Positions 25-12,137 of a stretch of DNA of 12,207 nucleotides are shown here, piece after piece. This DNA comes from Candidatus Iainarchaeum sp. (GTDB lineage: Archaea > Iainarchaeota > Iainarchaeia > Iainarchaeales > CSSED10-239), in the NCBI GenBank assembly GCA_937968065.1, contig CALBUD010000037.1:1-12207 (forward strand), written 5' to 3'. The position numbers were made by a program, and so were the translations under genes. The notes beneath the pieces were generated by a model. The model saw only the letters and a list, made by a program, of their open reading frames with translations, was not told the origin of the DNA and searched no databases. Within the stretch, counting starts at the first letter, position 1. Every line of letters starts with the position of its first letter.

Positions 25-2319
25 TTAGAAGGTAATTTTTGAAGCTGAATCGTTTTCTTTATCTCTTTCTATTATATATTTATTAGCATTTACTGTTTCT
101 AAAAGATTGTTATCATGAGTTACTATAAATATTTGATCTACAAGGTCTGGTAGTTCTTCTTCTAAAACCTCTGATAATGCTTTTATTGATTTTTCATCTA
201 AATTATGTGTTGGCTCATCTAAAATTAAAAGACCTAATTTTTTAGTTAAAATTAAAGAAATTGCAATTCTTATTGATAAAGATGCGCACGCTCTTTCTCC
301 ACCACTTAAAAAACCTTCTACTTTTATCCAATCATTTTTTAAAGTTAAAACTTCTAAAATATAGTCATTATTTGCATTTAATCTTGCTGAAAGATAATCT
401 TTATATGGATATATTTTTGGCCAAATTATAGATAATGCTTCATTTATGTTATCAATTAGATATTTTCTTAATTGTAATTGACTAGAATCAATTGCTTTTA
501 AAAAATAAGACAAATCTTGTTTTTTAAAATTTATGTTTTGAAGATTTAAAGAGAGATTTTCTTTTTGTTTATTTAATAGTTGATAATTGTTTATTTGTTT
601 TCTTGTGTTTTCTAAAGAAAAAGAATTTGTTTTAAAAGATTCTTTTAAAGAATTAAAATTAGAATCTAAATTTTTGTGTTCTGCAAGAATATTAAGATAA
701 GCTTCTTCATTATAGTTTATTAAATCAAGCTCTTTTTTTAAAATTGTTTTTTTATTTAAAAAACCATCTTTTAATTTTTTATTTTTTAAAAAATCTTCTT
801 TTTTTCTTAAAATTTCTTTTTTTTCTAAAATATTTTTTTCATAAAAAGATAAATCTTTTAATTTAGGCATATTATTAATTTCTTTATTGAAGTCAGATTG
901 TTCGTTTTCATAATTTTTAATGTTTTTAATGATTGAATCTATATCTTGCTGTATTTTTTGGTTTTTTAAATGTAGGTTTTCTTGTACCTCTAGATTTTGT
1001 AAATCTTTATTTAACAATAATATTTCTTGTTTTAAGTTATTTTTATTTTTTAAAAGCTCTTCTAAATTATTTGTTTTATCCAATAATAATTTTTCTAAGT
1101 TTTCTTTTGAAAAAGAAGTATTACATACAGGGCAGTTACTAAAGCCTTTTTTAATTTCAACTAATGATTTATTAAAATCATTTTCTAAAGAAATTAAAGA
1201 TATTTCTTTTTCTTTTAAAAAAGTTATCTTATTTATAATTTCTTCTTTTTTTGTTTTTAAACTTTCAAAAGATATTTCAATTAGTGCCTTTTCTTTTTCT
1301 AATAAATTTATTTTTTCTTTATTTTCTAAAATGTTTTTATTATAGAAAGATACTTTATTTTCAAGAGATTTTTTTAAAATTTCTAATTTTTTATTTTCTT
1401 CTTGTTTTTCTTTAAATTCTTTTTCTAAAAATGATAGTTTCTCTTTTTCTGCAAAAATATCTTCCTGAGAAGTATTTATAATTTCTGTATCAGTTGTTTT
1501 TAATAGTTCTTCTTCAATTTCTTTTAATCTTAAAAAAACTAAATTATATTCTGATTTTAATGAATCATATTTTTCTTTAATTTCTTTTTTTTCTTTAAGT
1601 TTTAATGAAGTTTGAGTTATTTTTTCGTCTTGATTTTTAATTTCTTTTTCTAAAATATTAATTTTTTCTAATAATTCTTTTTCAATTTTTAAAAGTTCAG
1701 ATAAATCAAAAGAAGTTAACTGATTATTTATTTGATTTAAAAGAGATTGATTTTTTTCAATTTCAAAATTTAAAGCAGAATCTATTTTTTTAGTATTGCT
1801 TTTAATTTCTTCAAAATGAGAAATGCCAAAAAGATCATCGAATTGTTCTTTTCTTTTTGAAGGAATTATTTTTAAAAAATAATCAATTTCATTTTGTTGA
1901 GAGTAAACTACCTTTATAAAAAGATTATAATCAATACCTAAAAGATTTGAAATAAATTCATCTACATCTGTTTTTTTAGGCCCCTTTATTAATTTGTTAT
2001 CCAGATAGACTTTTGCAGAATTGGCTTTATTTCCAAAATAAACTTCTCTTTCTATTAAATAAATTTTTTCATCTTGTTCAAGTTCTAAAATAACTTTAAA
2101 ATATTCTTTTTTATTTGGTTTAAACATTATAGTTTCATCTAAAGTTATTTTTCTAGTTGAAAGAGTTGGAAATGTGCCATAAAGAGCATAACAGATTGCA
2201 TCAACAATGCTTGACTTACCAGAACCAATTATACCTAAAAGTATATTAGTTCCTTTCTTAAAAGAAAGTTTTGAATCAAGGTGGGTTTTCCAATTTTCAA
2301 GATAAATAGATTTTATCAT
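25..2319 (-). CDS. rad50: Rad50 DNA double-strand-break repair ATPase (SMC-like, zinc-hook coiled coil)
   Basis: Listed ORF is 25..2361. I place the start at the internal ATG at 2319 (MIKSIYLENWK...), because Rad50/SbcC proteins begin with this strand just before the Walker A loop (GIIGSGKSS). Other motifs: Q-loop YSQQNE, long K/E/L/N-rich coiled coil, central CPVC zinc hook (nt 1123-1134, about residue 396 of 764), ABC signature LSGGERACASL, Walker B LLILDEPTHNLD, H-loop IVTHD. Confidence 0.9.
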   Translation of the reverse strand: MIKSIYLENWKTHLDSKLSFKKGTNILLGIIGSGKSSIVDAICYALYGTFPTLSTRKITLDETIMFKPNKKEYFKVILELEQDEKIYLIEREVYFGNKANSAKVYLDNKLIKGPKKTDVDEFISNLLGIDYNLFIKVVYSQQNEIDYFLKIIPSKRKEQFDDLFGISHFEEIKSNTKKIDSALNFEIEKNQSLLNQINNQLTSFDLSELLKIEKELLEKINILEKEIKNQDEKITQTSLKLKEKKEIKEKYDSLKSEYNLVFLRLKEIEEELLKTTDTEIINTSQEDIFAEKEKLSFLEKEFKEKQEENKKLEILKKSLENKVSFYNKNILENKEKINLLEKEKALIEISFESLKTKKEEIINKITFLKEKEISLISLENDFNKSLVEIKKGFSNCPVCNTSFSKENLEKLLLDKTNNLEELLKNKNNLKQEILLLNKDLQNLEVQENLHLKNQKIQQDIDSIIKNIKNYENEQSDFNKEINNMPKLKDLSFYEKNILEKKEILRKKEDFLKNKKLKDGFLNKKTILKKELDLINYNEEAYLNILAEHKNLDSNFNSLKESFKTNSFSLENTRKQINNYQLLNKQKENLSLNLQNINFKKQDLSYFLKAIDSSQLQLRKYLIDNINEALSIIWPKIYPYKDYLSARLNANNDYILEVLTLKNDWIKVEGFLSGGERACASLSIRIAISLILTKKLGLLILDEPTHNLDEKSIKALSEVLEEELPDLVDQIFIVTHDNNLLETVNANKYIIERDKENDSASKITF

Positions 2320-2408
2320 AAGTATATAATTAATAGATAAAAACAAATAAAAAGAGAACAAACAAAAGGTTTAAATAAATATAGAAGCTATAAATTATTT
2401 GATAAACT

Positions 2409-2600
2409 ATGCATGATTTAAAAAGAATCTTAAAAGAAGAAAAAGCACAAATATCTGCTGAAATGATTATTTTAATTGCTGCAATAATTGCAATAGTTCT
2501 TGTTGTTGTAACTCAACTTCAAAAAACAACAACAAAAGCAAATAAAACTGTTGACAAAAAAGCAGATGATGTTTTTAAGCAGATTGAAAAAATAAATTAA
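2409..2600 (+). CDS. Short class III signal peptide pilin (DUF361/UPF0333-type, QxSxExxxL motif)
   Basis: 63 aa. A charged leader MHDLKRILKEEKA is followed by QISAEMIIL (Q+1, S+3, E+5, L+9) and a roughly 20-residue hydrophobic helix, then a short polar tail. This size and motif match the short EppA-processed pilins of methanococci. A consensus TATA (TTTAAATA, 2370-2377) lies about 30 nt upstream. Confidence 0.75.
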   Translation: MHDLKRILKEEKAQISAEMIILIAAIIAIVLVVVTQLQKTTTKANKTVDKKADDVFKQIEKIN

Positions 2601-2614
2601 AGAAGTAATCTTCT

Positions 2615-3010
2615 GTGAATCAAAAAGCACAAGTTAGTTTAGAATATATATTGATTGCACTCGCTATTGTCGTGGTTCTTTCATTAATTATTATGCAAGC
2701 AACTATTCTTTATTCTAAAAATATAAATATTATTGATAATAGAGAGCTTAAAAATACTTTTGAAAAAATTCAAGCAAATTTAGATATTATAGAACTTTTA
2801 GAAAATTATATAGAAGAAATAAATGTATATCCTGAAAAAACTTGGTATTTTGAAAAAATTAATGAAAAAGAAATAAAAATATTTAATGAAAATAAAGAAT
2901 ATTTAATAAATAGTAATAAACCTATTATTTTAAATTTTAGAGAAATAAAAAAAGAAGAAATAATAATTATTAAAAAAGAAAATAATAAGATATATATTGA
3001 ATTAAAATGA
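2615..3010 (+). CDS. Pilin-like protein with class III signal peptide (DUF361-type)
   Basis: GTG start at 2615. The N-terminus MNQKA|QVSLEYILIALAIVVVLSLII repeats the QxSxE pattern of the upstream gene. The rest is a 100-aa N/K/E/I-rich domain with no recognisable motif. Confidence 0.6.
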   Translation: MNQKAQVSLEYILIALAIVVVLSLIIMQATILYSKNINIIDNRELKNTFEKIQANLDIIELLENYIEEINVYPEKTWYFEKINEKEIKIFNENKEYLINSNKPIILNFREIKKEEIIIIKKENNKIYIELK

Positions 3011-3525
3011 ACTTAAATAACTTTTTATCAAAAATTTTATTTATTGGTATAACTATACATGAAATTGCACATGCTTTTGCATGCATTATTCTTGGTGTAA
3101 AAATAAGAAAAGTTAAACTATTAAGTTTTACAGACGGATATGTGGTGCATGATGAGTCAAGATCTTATAAAAATATCATAATCTCTATCTTTCCTTTTTT
3201 TTTTAATATTTTAGTTGCTTTTTTATGTATACTGTTATTAAAAAAAGAGCTTTTAATCATATATAAAGTAATAATTGCATGGTTTGCTATATCAGCTTTG
3301 TTTTTCTCAATACCTTCAAGACAAGATGCAAATAATGTGTTTGCATCTATTAAAAAAAGCTATAGATGGAATCAATCTTTATTAAAATGGCTATATAAGA
3401 TCATATTATTACCATTAACTTTATTTATTTTAATCCTTTCTTGGTTATTTAAAGTATTAGATCAGTCTTTTTTAACAAGATTAGTATTAATTGCCATTTG
3501 GGTTTATGTATTAGTTATTTTTTAA
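3007..3525 (+). CDS. Small polytopic membrane zinc-metalloprotease-like protein (HExxH; M50/site-2-protease-like or DUF3267-like)
   Basis: 172 aa with 4-5 predicted TM helices by eye. HEIAH (nt 3058-3072, residues 18-22) sits in TM1 and is followed by ACIILGVKIRKVKLLSF.DG, resembling the HExxH..G.k....l.p.GG start of M50 proteases. A later IPSRQDANNV segment is a possible degenerate PxxLDG third-ligand motif. The start overlaps the upstream stop as ATGA (3007-3010). Confidence 0.6.
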   Translation: MNLNNFLSKILFIGITIHEIAHAFACIILGVKIRKVKLLSFTDGYVVHDESRSYKNIIISIFPFFFNILVAFLCILLLKKELLIIYKVIIAWFAISALFFSIPSRQDANNVFASIKKSYRWNQSLLKWLYKIILLPLTLFILILSWLFKVLDQSFLTRLVLIAIWVYVLVIF

Positions 3526-5822: not shown

Positions 5823-6323
5823 ATGGCAATAAACCAAAAGGCCTTTGCATCTATAATTGTACTTTTGTTTTTATTATTTTTTTCATTTATTATTCTCGAG
5901 AATAAGAGAACAGACATTTCTGATTTTATTATTATTAAGCAGGCTGAAACTAAAAAAGAGAGCATTTATTTAAATTTTGAAACAAACATTAAAAATACTT
6001 TAAATAATTGTGAAGAAGATCCTTTAATAAATAATCTTGAAGTTATTAAAGAGGCTAATAATTTTATAAATAATAGTGACTCTAATTTTTTTATTAAAAA
6101 TATTATTTCTCAAAAAGAAGAAGAAGTTAATATAACATATTTAACTGAAATAATCAAAGTTATTGTATATAAACCTTCAAGAAATATAGTTGTTAAAGAA
6201 GTACATATAACAAACGGATTTTTAAAAAATAAAGTTTTAGGATATACCCTAAATACTAGTAATTACAAAACCACTTTTTTATTTCCAGAAAATTATAGTT
6301 TAAAAAAGGTGATTTTTTGTTAA
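5823..6323 (+). CDS. Pilin-like / class III signal peptide-like membrane-anchored protein, function unknown
   Basis: 166 aa. MAINQKA|FASIIVLLFLLFFSFIIL gives a short basic leader, a small residue, then a roughly 20-aa hydrophobic helix. The rest is N/K/I-rich with 2 Cys. The TATA-like ATATATAC (5791-5798) is spaced for a leaderless transcript. Confidence 0.5.
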   Translation: MAINQKAFASIIVLLFLLFFSFIILENKRTDISDFIIIKQAETKKESIYLNFETNIKNTLNNCEEDPLINNLEVIKEANNFINNSDSNFFIKNIISQKEEEVNITYLTEIIKVIVYKPSRNIVVKEVHITNGFLKNKVLGYTLNTSNYKTTFLFPENYSLKKVIFC

Positions 6324-6559
6324 ATAAAAAAGGAGTGGTATCTATTGAGTTTATTTTTTCATTATTAATTATAATTGTAATTTTGTATTTATTAATCCTT
6401 GTTAACTTAAATTTTAAAAATAAGTTATCTGAAGAAATAAATTATGAAGAATATAATTTTGAAGTTTGTTTTATAAAAGAAATAATTCTCAAAAATAATA
6501 ATGGAGAAATATTAAATGATTTCTGCAAAATCAAAAAAAGGACAAATAATTATAATTGA
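6317..6559 (+). CDS. Small pilin-like protein (KKG|VVSIE class III signal peptide)
   Basis: 80 aa with a TTG start at 6317, preceded by SD AGGTGAT (6307-6313). MLNKKG|VVSIEFIFSLLIIIVILYLLILV has S+3 and E+5 as in the DUF361 motif. Overlaps the upstream gene by 7 nt. Confidence 0.55.
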   Translation: MLNKKGVVSIEFIFSLLIIIVILYLLILVNLNFKNKLSEEINYEEYNFEVCFIKEIILKNNNGEILNDFCKIKKRTNNYN

Positions 6560-6929
6560 TATTTTATTATTTTTAATAATAATTTTATTAATTATTTCAA
6601 TACAAACAAAAATAATTAGAAACTATAAAGAAAATTTATCTTTTCAAGAAAAAGAAATTAATTTTTTAAAAGAAGATTTTTTAATAGAAAATTACTTGCT
6701 TGATTGTAATTACTTAGGTTATTTAGATAAAGATACTAAAAAATGTTATAAAAACAAAATAGAAATTAAAAACATTGATAAAATAGATTACTCAATTTTT
6801 TGTAAATTAAAAATAAATGAAAATATAATTTTTTATATTGAAAATAAAAATAATAAAAAAATATATAAAAGAGCAGCTGTTTTTGAAGACAAATTTACTA
6901 TATTAGAGGTTGAGTTTTGTGAAAAATAA
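6516..6929 (+). CDS. Small pilin-like protein (KKG|QIIIID class III signal peptide)
   Basis: 137 aa. MISAKSKKG|QIIIIDILLFLIIILLIISI. GGAG (6503-6506) lies 9 nt upstream of the ATG. Contains 4 Cys. Overlaps the upstream ORF by 44 nt. Confidence 0.55.
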   Translation: MISAKSKKGQIIIIDILLFLIIILLIISIQTKIIRNYKENLSFQEKEINFLKEDFLIENYLLDCNYLGYLDKDTKKCYKNKIEIKNIDKIDYSIFCKLKINENIIFYIENKNNKKIYKRAAVFEDKFTILEVEFCEK

Positions 6930-7281
6930 AGGAATCATTTTTACAATTGACGGAATTATAGCACTTACATTTATAGCTTTATTTTCAATGATTTTATTTG
7001 TGCCAACCTATGACAACACAAAAGAAATTGAAAAAATTTTAATTAATAACAGAATTTCAGATCTTTTAATAACTGCCCAATTACTTGAAATTGAAAACTC
7101 AAATATTTTAGAACAAAAATTTCAATTACTTTTAGAAGATAAATCAGGATTTATTATTATTAATAATAAAAAAATAGAAATTAATAACAGCCATGAAAAA
7201 ACAAGATTAATTTCACAAAACATAAGATATATTAATAGTTCTAATAAAGAAATATATATTGAAATAGGAGTGTATTATTAA
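6919..7281 (+). CDS. Small pilin-like protein (KNKG|IIFTID class III signal peptide)
   Basis: The ORF track starts at TTG 6910. I prefer GTG 6919 (MKNKG|IIFTIDGIIALTFIALFSMILFV) because GAGGT (6906-6910) is then 8 nt upstream. Either start overlaps the upstream gene. Confidence 0.5.
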   Translation: MKNKGIIFTIDGIIALTFIALFSMILFVPTYDNTKEIEKILINNRISDLLITAQLLEIENSNILEQKFQLLLEDKSGFIIINNKKIEINNSHEKTRLISQNIRYINSSNKEIYIEIGVYY

Positions 7282-8285: not shown

Positions 8286-8792
8286 GTGATTAAAATGAAA
8301 GGAATTTTAAAAAACAGATTTATTGAAATCTATAGCAACAATTTAAAATCTCAATTAATAAACAAAGGATTTGGAAATAAACAAGACAATTATTTAGAAA
8401 TAGATTTTTTTGAAGGGCTTTTTCTTCTTGAAAAAAATAAAATGAAAATATATCTCGATAATAAAATAATTTTAAAAAAAGACTTTATTAGTTATTCTGA
8501 AAAAAAAATAAAAAATTTCAAAGAAAAATATATTGTTTATAAAGATTTTAAAGAAAAAGGCTATATAATTAAAGATGGTGCTATTTTTGGATTTGATTTT
8601 AGAATTTATGAAGGAAAAACTAAAAAACACGAACACACCAAATATGTTGTAGATGTTAAAAAAACACATAAAGATGAGATGTCACAGATAATCAAATCAG
8701 AAAGACTTGCAAACAGTATTAATGCAGAATATGTTATTGCAATTATTGATATGGATCAAAAAATAATAAAAATAAAAATAAAAAGAATTTAA
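8286..8792 (+). CDS. endA: tRNA-splicing endonuclease (tRNA-intron lyase) subunit
   Basis: Aligns by eye to M. jannaschii EndA. YIVYKDFKEKGYIIKDGAIFGFDFRIYEG...HEHTKYVV...RLANSINAEYVIAIID corresponds to YLVYKDLRTRGYIVKTGLKYGADFRLYERG...KEHSVYLV...RVAHSVRKKLLIAIVD. GTG start at 8286, with an alternative ATG at 8295. Confidence 0.85.
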   Translation: MIKMKGILKNRFIEIYSNNLKSQLINKGFGNKQDNYLEIDFFEGLFLLEKNKMKIYLDNKIILKKDFISYSEKKIKNFKEKYIVYKDFKEKGYIIKDGAIFGFDFRIYEGKTKKHEHTKYVVDVKKTHKDEMSQIIKSERLANSINAEYVIAIIDMDQKIIKIKIKRI

Positions 8793-9232
8793 GAACATCT
8801 TGTTTCCCAATAATTAATAGGACACATAGTGTTTCTTATAGTTAATGTTATTGGAGATTTACCTTCATAATCTTCAATTACAAAAAAATCAGATTCTCCT
8901 ATTAAAAGACCTCTTGAGTCTAAAACATCGATGTTTGTCAAATCAATTATATTATCTGCATCTTTTAAAACAACATTAAAATTATAATCTGGTTTAAAAT
9001 TTACTTTTCCAGAATTTACAATACTTACTTGGAATTCATTTTCTAAATTATCATAATCACAAGAAATAAAACTTAAATAAATATTTGTACAATCTTTATC
9101 AATTGCGTTATCAGCTTCAGTTGTATTTTTAGTTATAAAATTAGATCCCCAAGACAAGATAATTGCAATTAATGCTAAAGAAACCACAATTAAAAGAATT
9201 GTTGCAATTATTGGGCTTATTGCTTTTTTCAT
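8789..9232 (-). CDS. Archaeal type IV pilin (archaellin-N-terminal-type class III signal peptide), paralog 1
   Basis: 147 aa. MKKA|ISPIIATILLIVVSLALIAIILSWG matches the A.SPVIATvLLi archaeal pilin/archaellin N-terminal domain. Has 4 Cys, ending CP-x8-CS. Confidence 0.85.
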   Translation of the reverse strand: MKKAISPIIATILLIVVSLALIAIILSWGSNFITKNTTEADNAIDKDCTNIYLSFISCDYDNLENEFQVSIVNSGKVNFKPDYNFNVVLKDADNIIDLTNIDVLDSRGLLIGESDFFVIEDYEGKSPITLTIRNTMCPINYWETRCS

Positions 9233-9257
9233 AAATTTTCACAAGTTTATTATTATT

Positions 9258-9295
9258 AAAAAAAGAAAAGAAATCTTTTTTTAAAAAAAGATTTC
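9258..9295 (-). terminator. Perfect 26-bp palindrome followed by a T-tract downstream of the middle pilin gene
   Basis: GAAATCTTTTTTTAAAAAAAGATTTC (9270-9295) is its own reverse complement. On the minus strand it is followed by TTTTCTTTTTTT (9269-9258). It lies 13 nt after the stop of the 9308..9790 gene. Confidence 0.55.
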
Positions 9296-9307
9296 AATTA
9301 TTTCTAT

Positions 9308-9790
9308 TTAGTTACAATTTGTTTTTGTAGCAACTGCATCTGATGGACAATAACTGGAAATTATTTTAACATCAAATCTAGATGGGTTTGTTGTACCAGG
9401 AAGATCTGCTTGAGCAATACTTACTTGGTGCATTTGTCCAGGAGTTAAATCAGAAGCAAAATCAGCTCCATAGTCACTTAAATTACTATTTAATTCACTT
9501 TCAGAATCTGTAAGGTTTGTTAAGTGAACTAAGAAATCATCTCCTGAAGAGATTGTTTTAGATCCAATGTTTTCTATATAAAATGTTAAATTTCCGTCTG
9601 CATCAACAGAACAGTTAGTTATTTGTACAGCTGAACCCATACATTCTGCATTCACAATATCACTAGTGTCACTTAAACTACTAGTTGTGAATGATTTTCC
9701 CCAAGCAACAACAATTGCAATTAACGCAACTGCAACAACAATTAAAAGAATAGTTGCTATTAACGGAGATATTGCTTTTTTCATTTTCAT
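9308..9790 (-). CDS. Archaeal type IV pilin, paralog 2 (candidate major pilin)
   Basis: 160 aa. MKMKKA|ISPLIATILLIVVAVALIAIVVAWG with an S/T/D/G/A-rich body and 4 Cys, ending CP-x10-CN. SD AGGTGAT (9802-9796) lies 5 nt upstream of the ATG. An alternative ATG is at 9784. Confidence 0.85.
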   Translation of the reverse strand: MKMKKAISPLIATILLIVVAVALIAIVVAWGKSFTTSSLSDTSDIVNAECMGSAVQITNCSVDADGNLTFYIENIGSKTISSGDDFLVHLTNLTDSESELNSNLSDYGADFASDLTPGQMHQVSIAQADLPGTTNPSRFDVKIISSYCPSDAVATKTNCN

Positions 9791-9827
9791 TTTTTATCAC
9801 CTTATTTAATTCATAATATCTTTTTTA

Positions 9828-10298
9828 TTAATTACATCTTGATACAAATGATAATTTATCAGGACAATTAACAACATGAACTTGAACTCTTTTTAAAGGA
9901 GTTTCAAGAGCATCAAAATCTTCATTTTCATTTAATAATGAATCTAAAGACATTGCATTTCCAATAAAGTTTGGACTTATTGAAGTACTTGCTATTTGAT
10001 TATCAGCAGCAATAACTGTTACAATTAAGTTTTGATCAATAGTTATTGTTGATCTATCAAAAACAAACAAACCACTAAACCCTGTTTCAGAATTATAACT
10101 ACATCCTGAATCAATATATATATTGACATTACTACAATCAATCCAGTCAGAAGATGTTTCTGAAACACTTGTTGTTGTATCTCTAAAATTTTGAGAAGAC
10201 CAAGAATATAATATACCTGCTAAAGATAAAGCAACAGCTACTAAAAGAATTGTTGCAATTAATGGAGATAATGCTTTTTTTTTATTTTTTTGAAACAT
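9828..10298 (-). CDS. Archaeal type IV pilin, paralog 3
   Basis: 156 aa. MFQKNKKKA|LSPLIATILLVAVALSLAGILYSW. Has 4 Cys, ending CP-x9-CN. Confidence 0.85.
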   Translation of the reverse strand: MFQKNKKKALSPLIATILLVAVALSLAGILYSWSSQNFRDTTTSVSETSSDWIDCSNVNIYIDSGCSYNSETGFSGLFVFDRSTITIDQNLIVTVIAADNQIASTSISPNFIGNAMSLDSLLNENEDFDALETPLKRVQVHVVNCPDKLSFVSRCN

Positions 10299-10343
10299 AC
10301 CTAATTTTTCTTTTTATTTTATATTATATTCTTAAATTTTATA

Positions 10344-10374
10344 TTAATATATAAACTATAAGATATATAAACCT
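10344..10374 (-). promoter_or_regulatory. Tandem TATA-box motifs upstream of the pilin genes
   Basis: The minus strand reads AGGTTTATATAT-CTTAT-AGTTTATATAT. That gives two copies of the consensus TTTATATA (10371-10364 and 10355-10348), 50-66 nt upstream of the ATG at 10298. Confidence 0.4.
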
Positions 10375-10409
10375 ATCTTCTTAAATAAACAAACCTTATT
10401 TTTAAAAAA

Positions 10410-11261
10410 TCACAAAAATATTGCTGAAACTAAAACATATAATGGTACTGAAACACCAACTAAAATTATTGAGTGTCTTACACCAGCAATGGCATTGTTT
10501 TCTGAAATTAAACCAATTGTTGGTCCTGCAAATAAACCTTGAATAACTATTAAATATAAGAAATATTTATTAAAATTTACATCAGACATTCCTGAAGATG
10601 CTTCTGCTCCATCTCCACTTAGGGAAATAGTACTTGAACCTAACATTGGAAGAAAGACTATTTGAATTATTAAAATAATTGCAATAAAAACAAAGAACAT
10701 AAAATAACTTGAAAAGACTGTAGAAAAAGTTTTTGATTTTCTTTCATCAACCATATCATTTAATGTTTTAACATAATCTGAAATTGAAGCAAATATTTTA
10801 ATAATATTTCCACCAACTTTATTTGTTTCTGAGATGATTTGAGTAACTTGTTTAAAGACAGGACTATCAATTTCGCCAAAAACTTCATTTAAAGCAACAT
10901 CAAAAGGAATTCCTATTTTTATTTGTGCAGCAACTCTTTTTATTGGAACATTAAGATGACCATAATCGTGTTTTGAAGCAACCTCAACAGCAGTTACAAT
11001 ATTCATACCACTTTGTAAAAGATCTTTTAAATCATCTAAAAAAACATATAAATTTTTTTCATAAGATTTAATTCTTGCAGTATATAATCTAGATGCAAGA
11101 CCTATTGATAAAAGAAATGGAAATATTGAAAAAATTAAATATTTAGTATTCATTAATAAAACAAAAAAGATTATTGAACCTACAAGACCATAAACTATAT
11201 AGTCTACAAAATATCTTTGTTTTTCAGATAAATTAATACCCAATTCTTTTTTTAAATCCAT
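10410..11261 (-). CDS. Type IV pilus platform protein, T2SS-F domain, equivalent to the C-terminal half of FlaJ/PilC (TadC/EpdK-like)
   Basis: 283 aa. N-terminal TM helices, then a cytoplasmic helical T2SSF-like block FLDDLKDLLQSGMNIVTAVEVASKHDYGHL...IKIGIPFDVALNEVF...ISETNKVGGNI, then C-terminal TM helices. Confidence 0.85.
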   Translation of the reverse strand: MDLKKELGINLSEKQRYFVDYIVYGLVGSIIFFVLLMNTKYLIFSIFPFLLSIGLASRLYTARIKSYEKNLYVFLDDLKDLLQSGMNIVTAVEVASKHDYGHLNVPIKRVAAQIKIGIPFDVALNEVFGEIDSPVFKQVTQIISETNKVGGNIIKIFASISDYVKTLNDMVDERKSKTFSTVFSSYFMFFVFIAIILIIQIVFLPMLGSSTISLSGDGAEASSGMSDVNFNKYFLYLIVIQGLFAGPTIGLISENNAIAGVRHSIILVGVSVPLYVLVSAIFL

Positions 11262-11267
11262 TTTTTA

Positions 11268-12137
11268 TCAACCACTAACTAAGTTTAAAATTGCAATAAA
11301 TCCAATATTAATAATTGGAACTAAAAGAAAAACACCAATTTGTAAAACTGTACCTATACCTAACCCTGCAATTCCACCACCAACCATTCCTAGAAGCATA
11401 ATTCCAGAAAATAAAAATAATGGTCCTGCAACAACAATTGCAGAATAAATATCACCAAATGTTTCTGCTTTTTGATTTTGGTTGTTTAATAATAAATTAT
11501 ATTGAAATCTTGCATGTTCTGCTTTTTTTTTCATAAACTCTGGTAAAGAACCACCTGCTTCTATGCTTGATTTTAATTCTAATAAAAATTTTTTAAGTTC
11601 AAAAGAAGGTGTTTTTCTTGCAGCAATATCAATTGCTTCTAAAAGAGAAATACCTAGAACATTTACATAATATAAAATTTTTGAAAATTCTTTATCTAAA
11701 TATTGACTTTTATCTTTAACGGTTTTTGTTGAAAAAATTGAAATTGGAGGGGCTCCTGATTCTGCAACACTTGACATTCCGATAATTGCTAAAGGAAGAG
11801 TATTTTTTATGTTTGAAACTTTAGAGCCTATTAATAAATAAGGGTTAACTATACTATAACCAATAAATGCAATAAAAATAGATAGAGATGCAATAATTAC
11901 TAGCTTTAAACCAATTACTTCTGGAACTAAAATACTTGCAACAAAACCAAATAATAAAAATAATAAAAAAATAAATACAGCAAAAAATATTTTTTTTGAA
12001 AAATAAAAATCAATATCTTCAGTTATGTCTGCTTGATCTAAAGCTTCTTCGAAATCATCTGAACGTAAGTTTCTAGTAATGGGTATAAATAAACTATAAA
12101 GTTTTTCTTCAAAACTTTTTTTCTTTTTTGGAGTCAT
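11268..12137 (-). CDS. Type IV pilus platform protein, T2SS-F domain, equivalent to the N-terminal half of FlaJ/PilC (TadB/EpdJ-like)
   Basis: 289 aa. LPLAIIGMSSVAESGAPPISIF...LGISLLEAIDIAARKTPSFELKKFLLELKSSIEAGGSLPEFM matches the tPS...fl..l...i.sGG.l..f signature of the first FlaJ repeat. Flanked by TM helices. Confidence 0.85.
   Translation of the reverse strand: MTPKKKKSFEEKLYSLFIPITRNLRSDDFEEALDQADITEDIDFYFSKKIFFAVFIFLLFLLFGFVASILVPEVIGLKLVIIASLSIFIAFIGYSIVNPYLLIGSKVSNIKNTLPLAIIGMSSVAESGAPPISIFSTKTVKDKSQYLDKEFSKILYYVNVLGISLLEAIDIAARKTPSFELKKFLLELKSSIEAGGSLPEFMKKKAEHARFQYNLLLNNQNQKAETFGDIYSAIVVAGPLFLFSGIMLLGMVGGGIAGLGIGTVLQIGVFLLVPIINIGFIAILNLVSG

Follow-up and report, generated by a model that had tools for sequence, protein, structure and literature searches.

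A candidate minimal S2P-clan protease encoded behind two class III signal proteins in a clade of Iainarchaeota, and its possible substrates

What might a putative intramembrane zinc protease act upon, when its gene directly follows two genes for pilin-like proteins? The question is raised by three consecutive genes on a contig of Candidatus Iainarchaeum sp., contained in the 12,207-nt stretch of DNA which was analysed as a whole and is referred to here as the window. All three are located on the forward strand: pilin1 (2409..2600, 63 aa, with the N-terminus MHDLKRILKEEKA/QISAEMIIL), pilin2 (2615..3010, 131 aa, with a GTG start and the N-terminus MNQKA/QVSLEYILI, the slash marking the end of the leader) and the protease gene (3007..3525, 172 aa), whose ATG start overlaps the TGA of pilin2 in an ATGA at 3007..3010 on the same strand. 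The open reading frames, the class III motifs and the overlap were found exactly as described in the initial annotation of this DNA.

The rad50 gene is divergent from pilin1, and the region between them spans roughly 89 nt. It includes a TATA-like A/T box, tttaaataaatata (2370..2383, forward strand), about 26-39 nt upstream of the pilin1 ATG, which can be regarded at most as a candidate archaeal promoter, because such boxes are frequent in a genome of 22% GC. The surroundings of the triad are a replication/translation gene neighbourhood. Two TadC/T2SSF genes are found about 7 kb away, on the opposite strand, and neither a pilus ATPase gene nor an A24 peptidase gene was detected in the 12,207 nt of the window. 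Overlaps are also present elsewhere in the window: a pilin-like ORF overlaps the diphthine synthase (Dph5) gene by 1 nt, and the latter overlaps a DUF357 gene by 17 nt. Since unrelated genes overlap as well, the ATGA is weak evidence of functional coupling; of the co-translation initially proposed for pilin2 and the protease, the overlap itself stands, while its value as a sign of coupling is slight.

The two upstream proteins had been described as class III signal (type IV pilin-like) proteins of the kind with Q at +1, and both the Pfam searches and the motif agree. Pilin1 scores 26.7 bits against the Pfam Class_IIIsignal model, above the cut-off of 23.7; pilin2 (22.5 bits against the same model, PF04021) remains just under it, with the full motif present, and matches to PF04021 are recorded for its orthologs at two other loci (L005 and L082). 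The six-frame translation contains two occurrences of the pattern [KR][GA]QxSxE, versus 0.005 expected, and none of 200 Markov simulations reached two. Pilin1 begins with a charged leader of 13 aa; past the predicted cleavage site KA/Q (E at +5) come about 22 aa of hydrophobic helix and a tail of 27 aa. The 47 homologs found are named "class III signal peptide-containing protein" or UPF0333; judged by its sequence, pilin1 is a class III signal protein of the UPF0333/EpdE kind.

Pilin2 has a leader of only 5 aa and a helix at its N-terminus, is rich in beta structure in its C-terminal part, and is probably a minor pilin-like subunit. An AlphaFold2 model, obtained from the single sequence, features a long N-terminal helix followed by 7 strands, at moderate confidence (pLDDT 70). 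A fold search of the PDB with this model produced no meaningful match, so that only the motif at the N-terminus and the arrangement of helix and sheet suggest a pilin fold.

The third gene product is a candidate minimal intramembrane zinc metalloprotease of the S2P clan (M50B/DUF3267-like). It matches Peptidase_M50B (PF13398) with 28.5 bits against a cut-off of 26, a small margin which concerns residues 13-102 only, while the scores for DUF3267 (PF11667, 20.1 bits) and Peptidase_M50 (PF02163, 14.8 bits) are below the respective cut-offs of 27.1 and 27.2. Among 43 relatives, DUF3267 is matched by 34, M50B by 27 and M50 by 12 (E<=0.01 for the DUF3267 and M50 counts), and one family member, at locus L018, reaches a DUF3267 score of 30.4. 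No match was found in NCBIfam for the protease, and only weak, sub-threshold ones for the pilin-like proteins. The protein is not a member of the A24 family, as it has neither a Pfam Peptidase_A24 match nor a GxGD in its sequence, although a comparable function is conceivable.

Three motifs are of note along the sequence. HEIAH (3058..3072, forward strand; H18, E19 and H22, within helix 12-29) would supply two zinc ligands and the catalytic Glu. It is invariant in the alignments A1, A2 and A4, and HExxH is found in 173 of 175 proteins, a set of 26 close homologs to which the 149 best new matches of the HMM search were added. By itself, the single HExxH of the window (0.16 expected by chance) is not significant. 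For PFFFN (3193..3207, forward strand; P63 to N67, within helix 54-78), the profile alignment, as we read it, suggests a positional match to the S2P motif "GPxxN/S"; P63 never varies in A2 or A4, nor does N67 within the clade. PSRQD (3313..3327, forward strand; P103, S104 and D107, at the junction of helices 84-99 and 105-118) contains the predicted third zinc ligand, an Asp located 89 residues past H18, and the preceding Pro.

Across 43 diverse relatives, G14, H18, E19, H22, P63, P103, S104 and D107 are all invariant. The third-ligand segment, at first only guessed as a PxxxDA (here PSRQDA), is thereby borne out, as is the conservation of the HExxH and of the downstream Asp across the family alignments. 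In the profile alignment, the FPSxxD of the protease is aligned with the FPMDG of mjS2P, with a local motif DxxN rather than DG. The initial description of an HExxH membrane protein resembling M50 and site-2 proteases is upheld as well. The further suggestion of an undescribed component does not hold as such: the protein belongs to a large family, and the NCBI name is already "M50 family metallopeptidase". Moreover, processing of a single-helix precursor from its own operon has meanwhile been demonstrated for a related DUF3267 protease (PMC13252029).

The AlphaFold2 model of the protease is a confident one (pLDDT 92.3, pTM 0.85), with helices at residues 12-29, 54-78, 84-99, 105-118, 125-133, 135-151 and 155-171 and a beta-hairpin at 33-48, a layout which fits the 4-5 transmembrane segments, with HExxH in the first, expected from the sequence. 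By Foldseek, the top PDB match is mjS2P (3b4r_B; probability 0.94, TM-score 0.46, weak E-value of 0.23), the next match having a probability of 0.28; in BFVD the top match is a phage SpoIVFB-like protein (probability 0.98, TM-score 0.41, weak E-value of 0.024). The two independent libraries thus agree in ranking an S2P-family protein first, well ahead of the runner-up, though at weak scores. When the family profile was compared with PDB sequences, 3b4r was again the top match (E 0.011, over 153 profile positions). If the positively charged loops are cytoplasmic, the modelled HExxH and Asp site would face the cytoplasmic ends of the helices.

The gene neighbourhoods were then compared across the family. 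In one clade of Iainarchaeota (DPANN), pilin1, pilin2 and the protease gene are kept together in 19 of the 19 loci examined: class III ORFs are found immediately upstream in all 15 loci reached through the protease, window included, and the same triad recurs at each of the 4 loci to which the most divergent homologs of pilin1 led. The gap between pilin2 and the protease gene varies from -4 to +15 nt across orthologous loci, though Rad50 has diverged to about 45% identity. Both flanks change: downstream of the triad, the clade loci carry PCNA, Rpo6, a 313-aa or a 298-aa gene, or His_Phos_1, and upstream a 182-aa gene is inserted at one locus (L082). Throughout the 19 loci, which span Rad50 identities down to about 45%, breakpoints are found on either side of the triad and never inside it, and a protease gene follows every pilin1 homolog whose context was read. 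Clade-wide identity is 59-86% for pilin1, versus 44-62% for Rad50.

Outside the clade, no adjacent co-oriented class III gene was found with a loose FlaFind-like rule in 46 distant loci (234 ORFs within 2.5 kb), and a stricter QxSxE pattern led to the same conclusion. The scan of related loci was carried out on a 14-sequence subset of the protease alignment. The linkage to class III signal genes, put forward from the window, thus holds for one Iainarchaeota clade and fails in the wider family. The nearest homolog outside the clade (41% identity) follows an HTH gene, and the neighbours differ by lineage (DnaK/GrpE, Zip/TfoX, tpiA, HTH, Wzy_C). A CPR-type bacterial subfamily has a pairing of its own: at 14 loci, a LytR_C protein that spans the membrane once is encoded directly upstream of the protease gene, and the two genes overlap. 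The neighbours of a family member at an Asgard locus include aIF2alpha, Nop10, Gins51 and PriS; a PriS-Gins-aIF2alpha gene cluster has been described (PMC2643942).

We tentatively favour, as the best reading, an operon-encoded pair of substrate and protease. The three genes would form one clade-specific operon, encoding in order an EpdE/UPF0333-like pilin, a second pilin-like protein and a minimal S2P-clan protease, presumably co-transcribed. The protease, if catalytically active, would most likely cut single-pass membrane proteins with the N-terminus inside, at or near the cytoplasmic face, and its likeliest clients would be the two class III signal proteins of the same transcript; the cut could be the removal of a leader, or serve turnover or quality control of unassembled pilin. 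Since its gene always follows theirs in this clade, the pilin-like proteins are the best current guess for its substrate. The pair is favoured because Pfam matches, invariant motifs and a confident model identify its parts, because linkage and tight spacing persist while both flanks change, and because there are parallels in the clan. Besides the CPR proteases that follow LytR_C genes, these include TmcP, a DUF3267 leader peptidase of the TMcin RiPP pathway of Staphylococcus aureus, which cleaves the N-terminal leader off TmcA, a precursor with one helix that is integrated in the membrane and whose gene shares the operon of the protease (bioRxiv 2026 preprint, PMC13252029).

Several observations weaken the pair, and its main rival is nearly as likely: a general minimal S2P-like membrane protease, whose task might be the quality control of membrane proteins or the cleavage of other substrates, may simply have been inherited in its gene order, with no role specific to pilins. 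With 811 clusters at 50% identity, from DPANN, Asgard, CPR and other bacteria, the family has many members and a wide taxonomic range; it has different neighbours in each lineage and shows no pilin linkage beyond the clade. Synteny is generally high in the clade, where upstream Rad50 is kept almost as well as the triad, and the pilin-like ORF and the diphthine synthase gene mentioned above, overlapped like the triad genes and functionally unrelated, are equally conserved. Because the Asgard member lies in the same replication/translation neighbourhood, the position of the protease gene may predate its association with pilins. The weak E-values and the TM-scores of 0.41-0.46 in the fold searches also count against the pair. 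On the other hand, a gene merely carried along is at odds with a triad never broken in 19 loci despite breakpoints on both sides, and with a protease gene after each pilin1 homolog of known context; TmcP and the LytR_C pairing in CPR suggest that the family tends to adjoin single-pass clients.

A more specific role, in which the protease would act as a metal-dependent prepilin peptidase and remove the KA/Q leaders of both co-encoded proteins in place of EppA, is unlikely. TmcP provides a precedent in the clan for cutting off an N-terminal leader directly ahead of a transmembrane helix, the modelled site would be near the cytoplasmic helix ends, where the scissile bond of prepilins sits, and a few archaea with pilus ATPases, two nanoarchaea included, have no recognisable A24 peptidase (PMC4858521). 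Against these points, every class III signal peptidase characterised so far belongs to the A24 aspartyl enzymes (PMC4858521), and the window contains at least seven further class III-like genes, none of which adjoins a metalloprotease gene, so that an A24 enzyme is expected elsewhere in the genome. The literature searched on DPANN prepilin peptidases contained no statement on an A24 peptidase of Iainarchaeota.

The vicinity of a small single-helix protein and a DUF3267-like protease, as in tmcA/tmcP, also recalls a TMcin-like RiPP/bacteriocin cluster, with pilin1 as precursor, the protease as maturase and no pilus involved. Such a cluster is most improbable here, and was rejected for want of a Cys pair and a transporter: no Cys at all is present in pilin1 or pilin2, and none of the features of the TMcin cluster (Cys-pair precursor, TmcBC ABC transporter, TmcD, TmcE escort) was found in the window, no gene for an ABC transporter, a disulfide-forming enzyme or a 2-helix escort being nearby. 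The N-termini fit the class III signal model rather than a leader of 45 aa, and the very high conservation of pilin1 suits a structural subunit.

A natural substrate is known for no archaeal S2P (2022 review, PMC9263693), and the conserved triad offers a concrete substrate hypothesis for a minimal one. If the protease acts on the pilins, a new processing or turnover step would be added to archaeal type IV pilus biology, and the principle of TmcP and TmcA, minimal S2Ps encoded beside single-helix clients, would extend to archaea. Were it the leader peptidase, it would be a zinc-dependent functional replacement of the aspartyl EppA, and the first natural substrate for an archaeal enzyme of the S2P clan would be at hand. 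If instead it is a protease with no role in pilins, the locus warns that, in compact DPANN genomes, overlap and kept order need not mean shared function.

Compared with known systems, the upstream genes resemble the Epd pilins of Methanococcus maripaludis, short UPF0333/Class_IIIsignal proteins with Q at +1 and E at +5 (PMC3875500; PMC4858521), and here too several minor pilin-like genes and TadC-like platform genes are nearby; the pilin-linked peptidase of that system, however, is EppA, a di-aspartyl A24 enzyme. The survey of Makarova et al. (2016) reports, as peptidases of archaeal pilus loci, only A24 enzymes and transglutaminase-like surface peptidases (PMC4858521). This agrees with the initial remark that no pilus locus has been described with a zinc intramembrane protease: no such locus, and no link between pili and metalloproteases, was found in the literature searched on S2P/M50B proteases, Iainarchaeota pili and DPANN prepilin peptidases.

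Like mjS2P of Methanocaldococcus jannaschii (PDB 3B4R; MEROPS M50, clan MM), the protease carries its HExxH within a transmembrane helix, with a beta-hairpin next in sequence. Its second helix contains a Pro, a Pro...Asp motif is present for the third ligand and, in our own reading of the alignment, two C-terminal helices lie where S2Ps have the gating helices TM5/TM6. It differs in its size of only 172 aa, in having no equivalent of mjS2P TM1 and no PDZ or CBS domain, and in the motif PSxxDxxN, in place of PxDG.

From TmcP it differs in more respects. TmcP has 4 helices, whereas the window protease has two further C-terminal ones and is under the DUF3267 cut-off; TmcP needs the escort TmcE, and the triad has no escort gene; the partners here are class III signal pilin-like proteins, without a Cys pair or an ABC transporter, and the host is an archaeon rather than a Gram-positive bacterium. 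In both cases, the operon that encodes a small membrane protein with a single helix also encodes a minimal S2P-clan protease. Furthermore, the HExxH-to-Asp spacing is 90 residues in TmcP (H68...D158), whose H68A/D158A double mutant is inactive, versus 89 in the window protease, and 3B4R, the top PDB match here, is the only PDB fold match of TmcP (PMC13252029).

Three consecutive genes on the forward strand were identified by ORF calls and Pfam scans as the initial annotation had described them: pilin1 (2409-2600, 63 aa, N-terminus MHDLKRILKEEKA/QISAEMIIL...), pilin2 (2615-3010, 131 aa, start GTG, N-terminus MNQKA/QVSLEYILI...) and a protease gene (3007-3525, 172 aa), the ATG of which overlaps the TGA of pilin2 (ATGA). 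The contig is archaeal, with a GC content of 22%, and its nearest relatives are Candidatus Iainarchaeum and Candidatus Forterrea multitransposorum (DPANN, Diapherotrites/Iainarchaeota group). With the Pfam Class_IIIsignal model, pilin1 scored 26.7 bits and pilin2 22.5 bits, marginally under the cut-off of 23.7; the protease scored 28.5 bits with Peptidase_M50B, slightly over the cut-off of 26, and was sub-threshold with DUF3267 (20.1) and Peptidase_M50 (14.8). The class III motif was observed twice, against 0.005 expected by chance, and HExxH once, against 0.16; the latter is meaningful only because it is conserved by the family.

The triad formed by these genes is preceded by the divergently transcribed Rad50 gene and followed by PCNA and Cdc6. 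The longest Rad50 ORF starts at TTG 2361; its conserved N-terminus (MIKSIYLENW...) suggests ATG 2319 as the true start (2319-2361, reverse strand), which would leave about 89 nt of intergenic sequence common to Rad50 and pilin1. Around the triad, the window also holds a second cluster of four consecutive, mutually overlapping pilin-like ORFs (5823-7281, forward strand; 166, 80, 137 and 123 aa), with class III-like hydrophobic N-termini and no significant Pfam match for any of the four. This block is kept in related loci together with the diphthine synthase (Dph5), DUF357 and tRNA endonuclease (EndA) genes. On the reverse strand (8789-12137) lie three paralogous pilin/archaellin-like genes with a common N-terminus, KKAISPxIATILLIVV, all three with a Cys within the last 3 residues; two TadC/T2SSF platform genes follow. 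The set resembles a second pilus system of another type, the ATPase of which would lie beyond the contig end.

Close homologs of the 172-aa protein number 26, all at least 47% identical. Against 1.84 billion cluster representatives, a profile search retrieved 811 relatives with E<=1e-3, of which 199 reached E<=1e-10, mostly of 160-200 aa; a bacterial subfamily of 250-260 aa lies directly downstream of triosephosphate isomerase (metagenome loci L044, L054, L061, L066), apparently in a housekeeping context. Among 43 diverse members, sharing 23-56% identity with the window protease, G14, H18, E19, H22, P63, P103, S104 and D107 are invariant and N110 nearly so, which defines the family signature FPGxxxHExxH ... 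P ... FPSxxDxxN. Both HExxH and the downstream Asp are thus conserved, and the 'PxxxDA' segment, previously only guessed, is borne out. Single-sequence Pfam scans of the same members matched DUF3267 in 34, Peptidase_M50B in 27 and Peptidase_M50 in 12, and some already carry the NCBI name 'M50 family metallopeptidase'; the protein belongs to a known superfamily and is not a new kind of enzyme. An aspartyl prepilin peptidase (A24) was ruled out, as the protein has neither a GxGD motif nor a Pfam A24 match.

A confident AlphaFold2 model, built from 35 sequences (pLDDT 92.3, pTM 0.85), places HExxH in helix 12-29, followed by a beta-hairpin (33-48), helix 54-78 carrying P63, helix 84-99 ending at PS, helix 105-118 beginning at D107, and further helices at 125-133, 135-151 and 155-171. 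The top PDB fold match is 3B4R, the site-2 protease (S2P) from Methanocaldococcus jannaschii, with probability 0.94 and TM 0.46 (next match, 0.28); the top viral-model match is a SpoIVFB-like protease (probability 0.98). The family profile matches the 3B4R sequence with E 0.011 over 153 positions, aligning FPSxxD with the S2P ligand motif FPMDG. Taken together, these three independent comparisons point to a predicted minimal S2P-clan core, devoid of PDZ or CBS domains; each score by itself is weak.

The expected linkage to class III genes was found within one Iainarchaeota clade, where two such ORFs lie directly upstream and co-oriented in all 15 loci found via the protease, window included. 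In the reverse search, the most divergent pilin1 homologs found (59-61 aa, 65-69% identical) were also in pilin1-pilin2-protease triads. Judged by identities to the window proteins, the clade is not shallow: 44-62% for Rad50, 45-78% for the protease, down to 31% for pilin2 and 59-86% for pilin1. Pilin1 (homologs P0197-P0243) is better conserved than Rad50 or the protease, which fits a major structural subunit; its homolog P0204, labelled 'Clostridia bacterium' at NCBI, probably comes from a mis-binned contig. The pilin2-protease gap ranges from -4 to +15 nt. No breakpoint falls within the triad in the loci compared, while both flanks change: downstream lie PCNA, Rpo6, an inserted 313-aa gene, a 298-aa gene on the opposite strand or a His_Phos_1 gene, and in locus L082 a 182-aa gene is inserted between Rad50 and pilin1. 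In locus L005 (1-5318), the block made up of the pilin-like ORFs, Dph5, DUF357 and EndA has relocated to the opposite side of Rad50, and Cdc6 is followed there by PriS-Gins-aIF2alpha; the triad, PCNA and Cdc6 keep their arrangement.

Outside the clade the linkage does not hold. The 46 loci with distant relatives hold 234 ORFs at most 2.5 kb away from the protease gene, and no class III gene among them is adjacent and co-oriented; only five weak FlaFind-like matches occur, none so placed. The nearest out-clade homolog (41% identity) follows an HTH regulator, and other DPANN members have unrelated contexts. The ATGA overlap behind the proposed translational coupling weighs little, because unrelated genes in the window overlap too: the last of the four pilin-like ORFs shares 1 nt with the start of diphthine synthase, the latter 17 nt with DUF357, and 2 nt separate DUF357 from the tRNA endonuclease gene. 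These pairs are likewise conserved across the clade. The parts are as first annotated. Their linkage is genuine, though restricted to a single clade, and could reflect gene order retained by descent. The main rival, a housekeeping protease merely sharing a transcript with the pilins, is a serious possibility, somewhat short of an even chance.

The triad is part of an archaeal gene neighbourhood that Berthon et al. described (PMC2643942), PCNA-PriS-Gins and aIF2alpha-Nop10, the order in loci L001 and L003 being aIF2alpha-Gins51-PriS-x-Rad50, triad, PCNA. A Promethearchaeota (Asgard) contig (JAHLWH010000200.1; L016, 2687-6630) carries a clear family member (78 bits with the family HMM, motif SPSNAD) divergent from aIF2alpha-Nop10 and adjoining Gins51 and PriS; pilin genes are absent from the locus. 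This single case suggests that the protease gene may long have belonged to the neighbourhood, with the pilin genes arriving beside it later.

The substrates of S2P-clan enzymes are single-pass proteins with a cytoplasmic N-terminus, whose transmembrane helices they cleave. Going by established S2P biology, pilin1 and pilin2 would have exactly this topology, and pilin1, of which only some 27 residues project from the membrane, would not have to be trimmed beforehand. In a CPR-type bacterial subfamily (HExxH...PSxxD; metagenome loci L023-L042 and L056), the protease gene sits immediately behind a LytR_C gene, which it overlaps, in 14 loci, in the order LexA, LytR_C, protease, PCC-domain protein, DUF3048 (e.g. 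L024, 3472-6949). The LytR_C protein is a single-pass membrane protein and a candidate substrate, so that this is another lineage-specific pairing like that of the triad. S2P biology, this pairing and the TmcP precedent below favour an operon-encoded substrate-protease pair, which we hold tentatively, at just under an even chance. Within it, leader removal seems less likely than turnover of unassembled pilin or its quality control. That the protease is a metal-dependent prepilin peptidase is improbable, since the window holds at least seven further genes of class III-like type that do not adjoin it, so that the genome presumably has an A24 peptidase too.

The census of archaeal type IV pili by Makarova et al. 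(PMC4858521) contains only A24 and transglutaminase-like surface peptidases, and no pilin-metalloprotease association; literature searches found no pilus-metalloprotease link, and according to a 2022 review (PMC9263693) it is not known what archaeal S2P homologs target. A TMcin cluster was rejected, since the locus contains neither a Cys pair nor a transporter nor an escort gene. A dedicated pilin protease is a testable hypothesis, which now has experimental precedent in bacteria: TmcP, a DUF3267 S2P-clan protease described in a June 2026 preprint, strips a 45-residue N-terminal leader off TmcA, a membrane-integrated single-helix precursor from the same operon, and mutation of both H68 and D158 to alanine abolishes cleavage (PMC13252029). 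The sole PDB fold match of TmcP is 3B4R, also matched by the window protease, and its H68-D158 spacing of 90 residues compares with 89 in the latter (PMC13252029).
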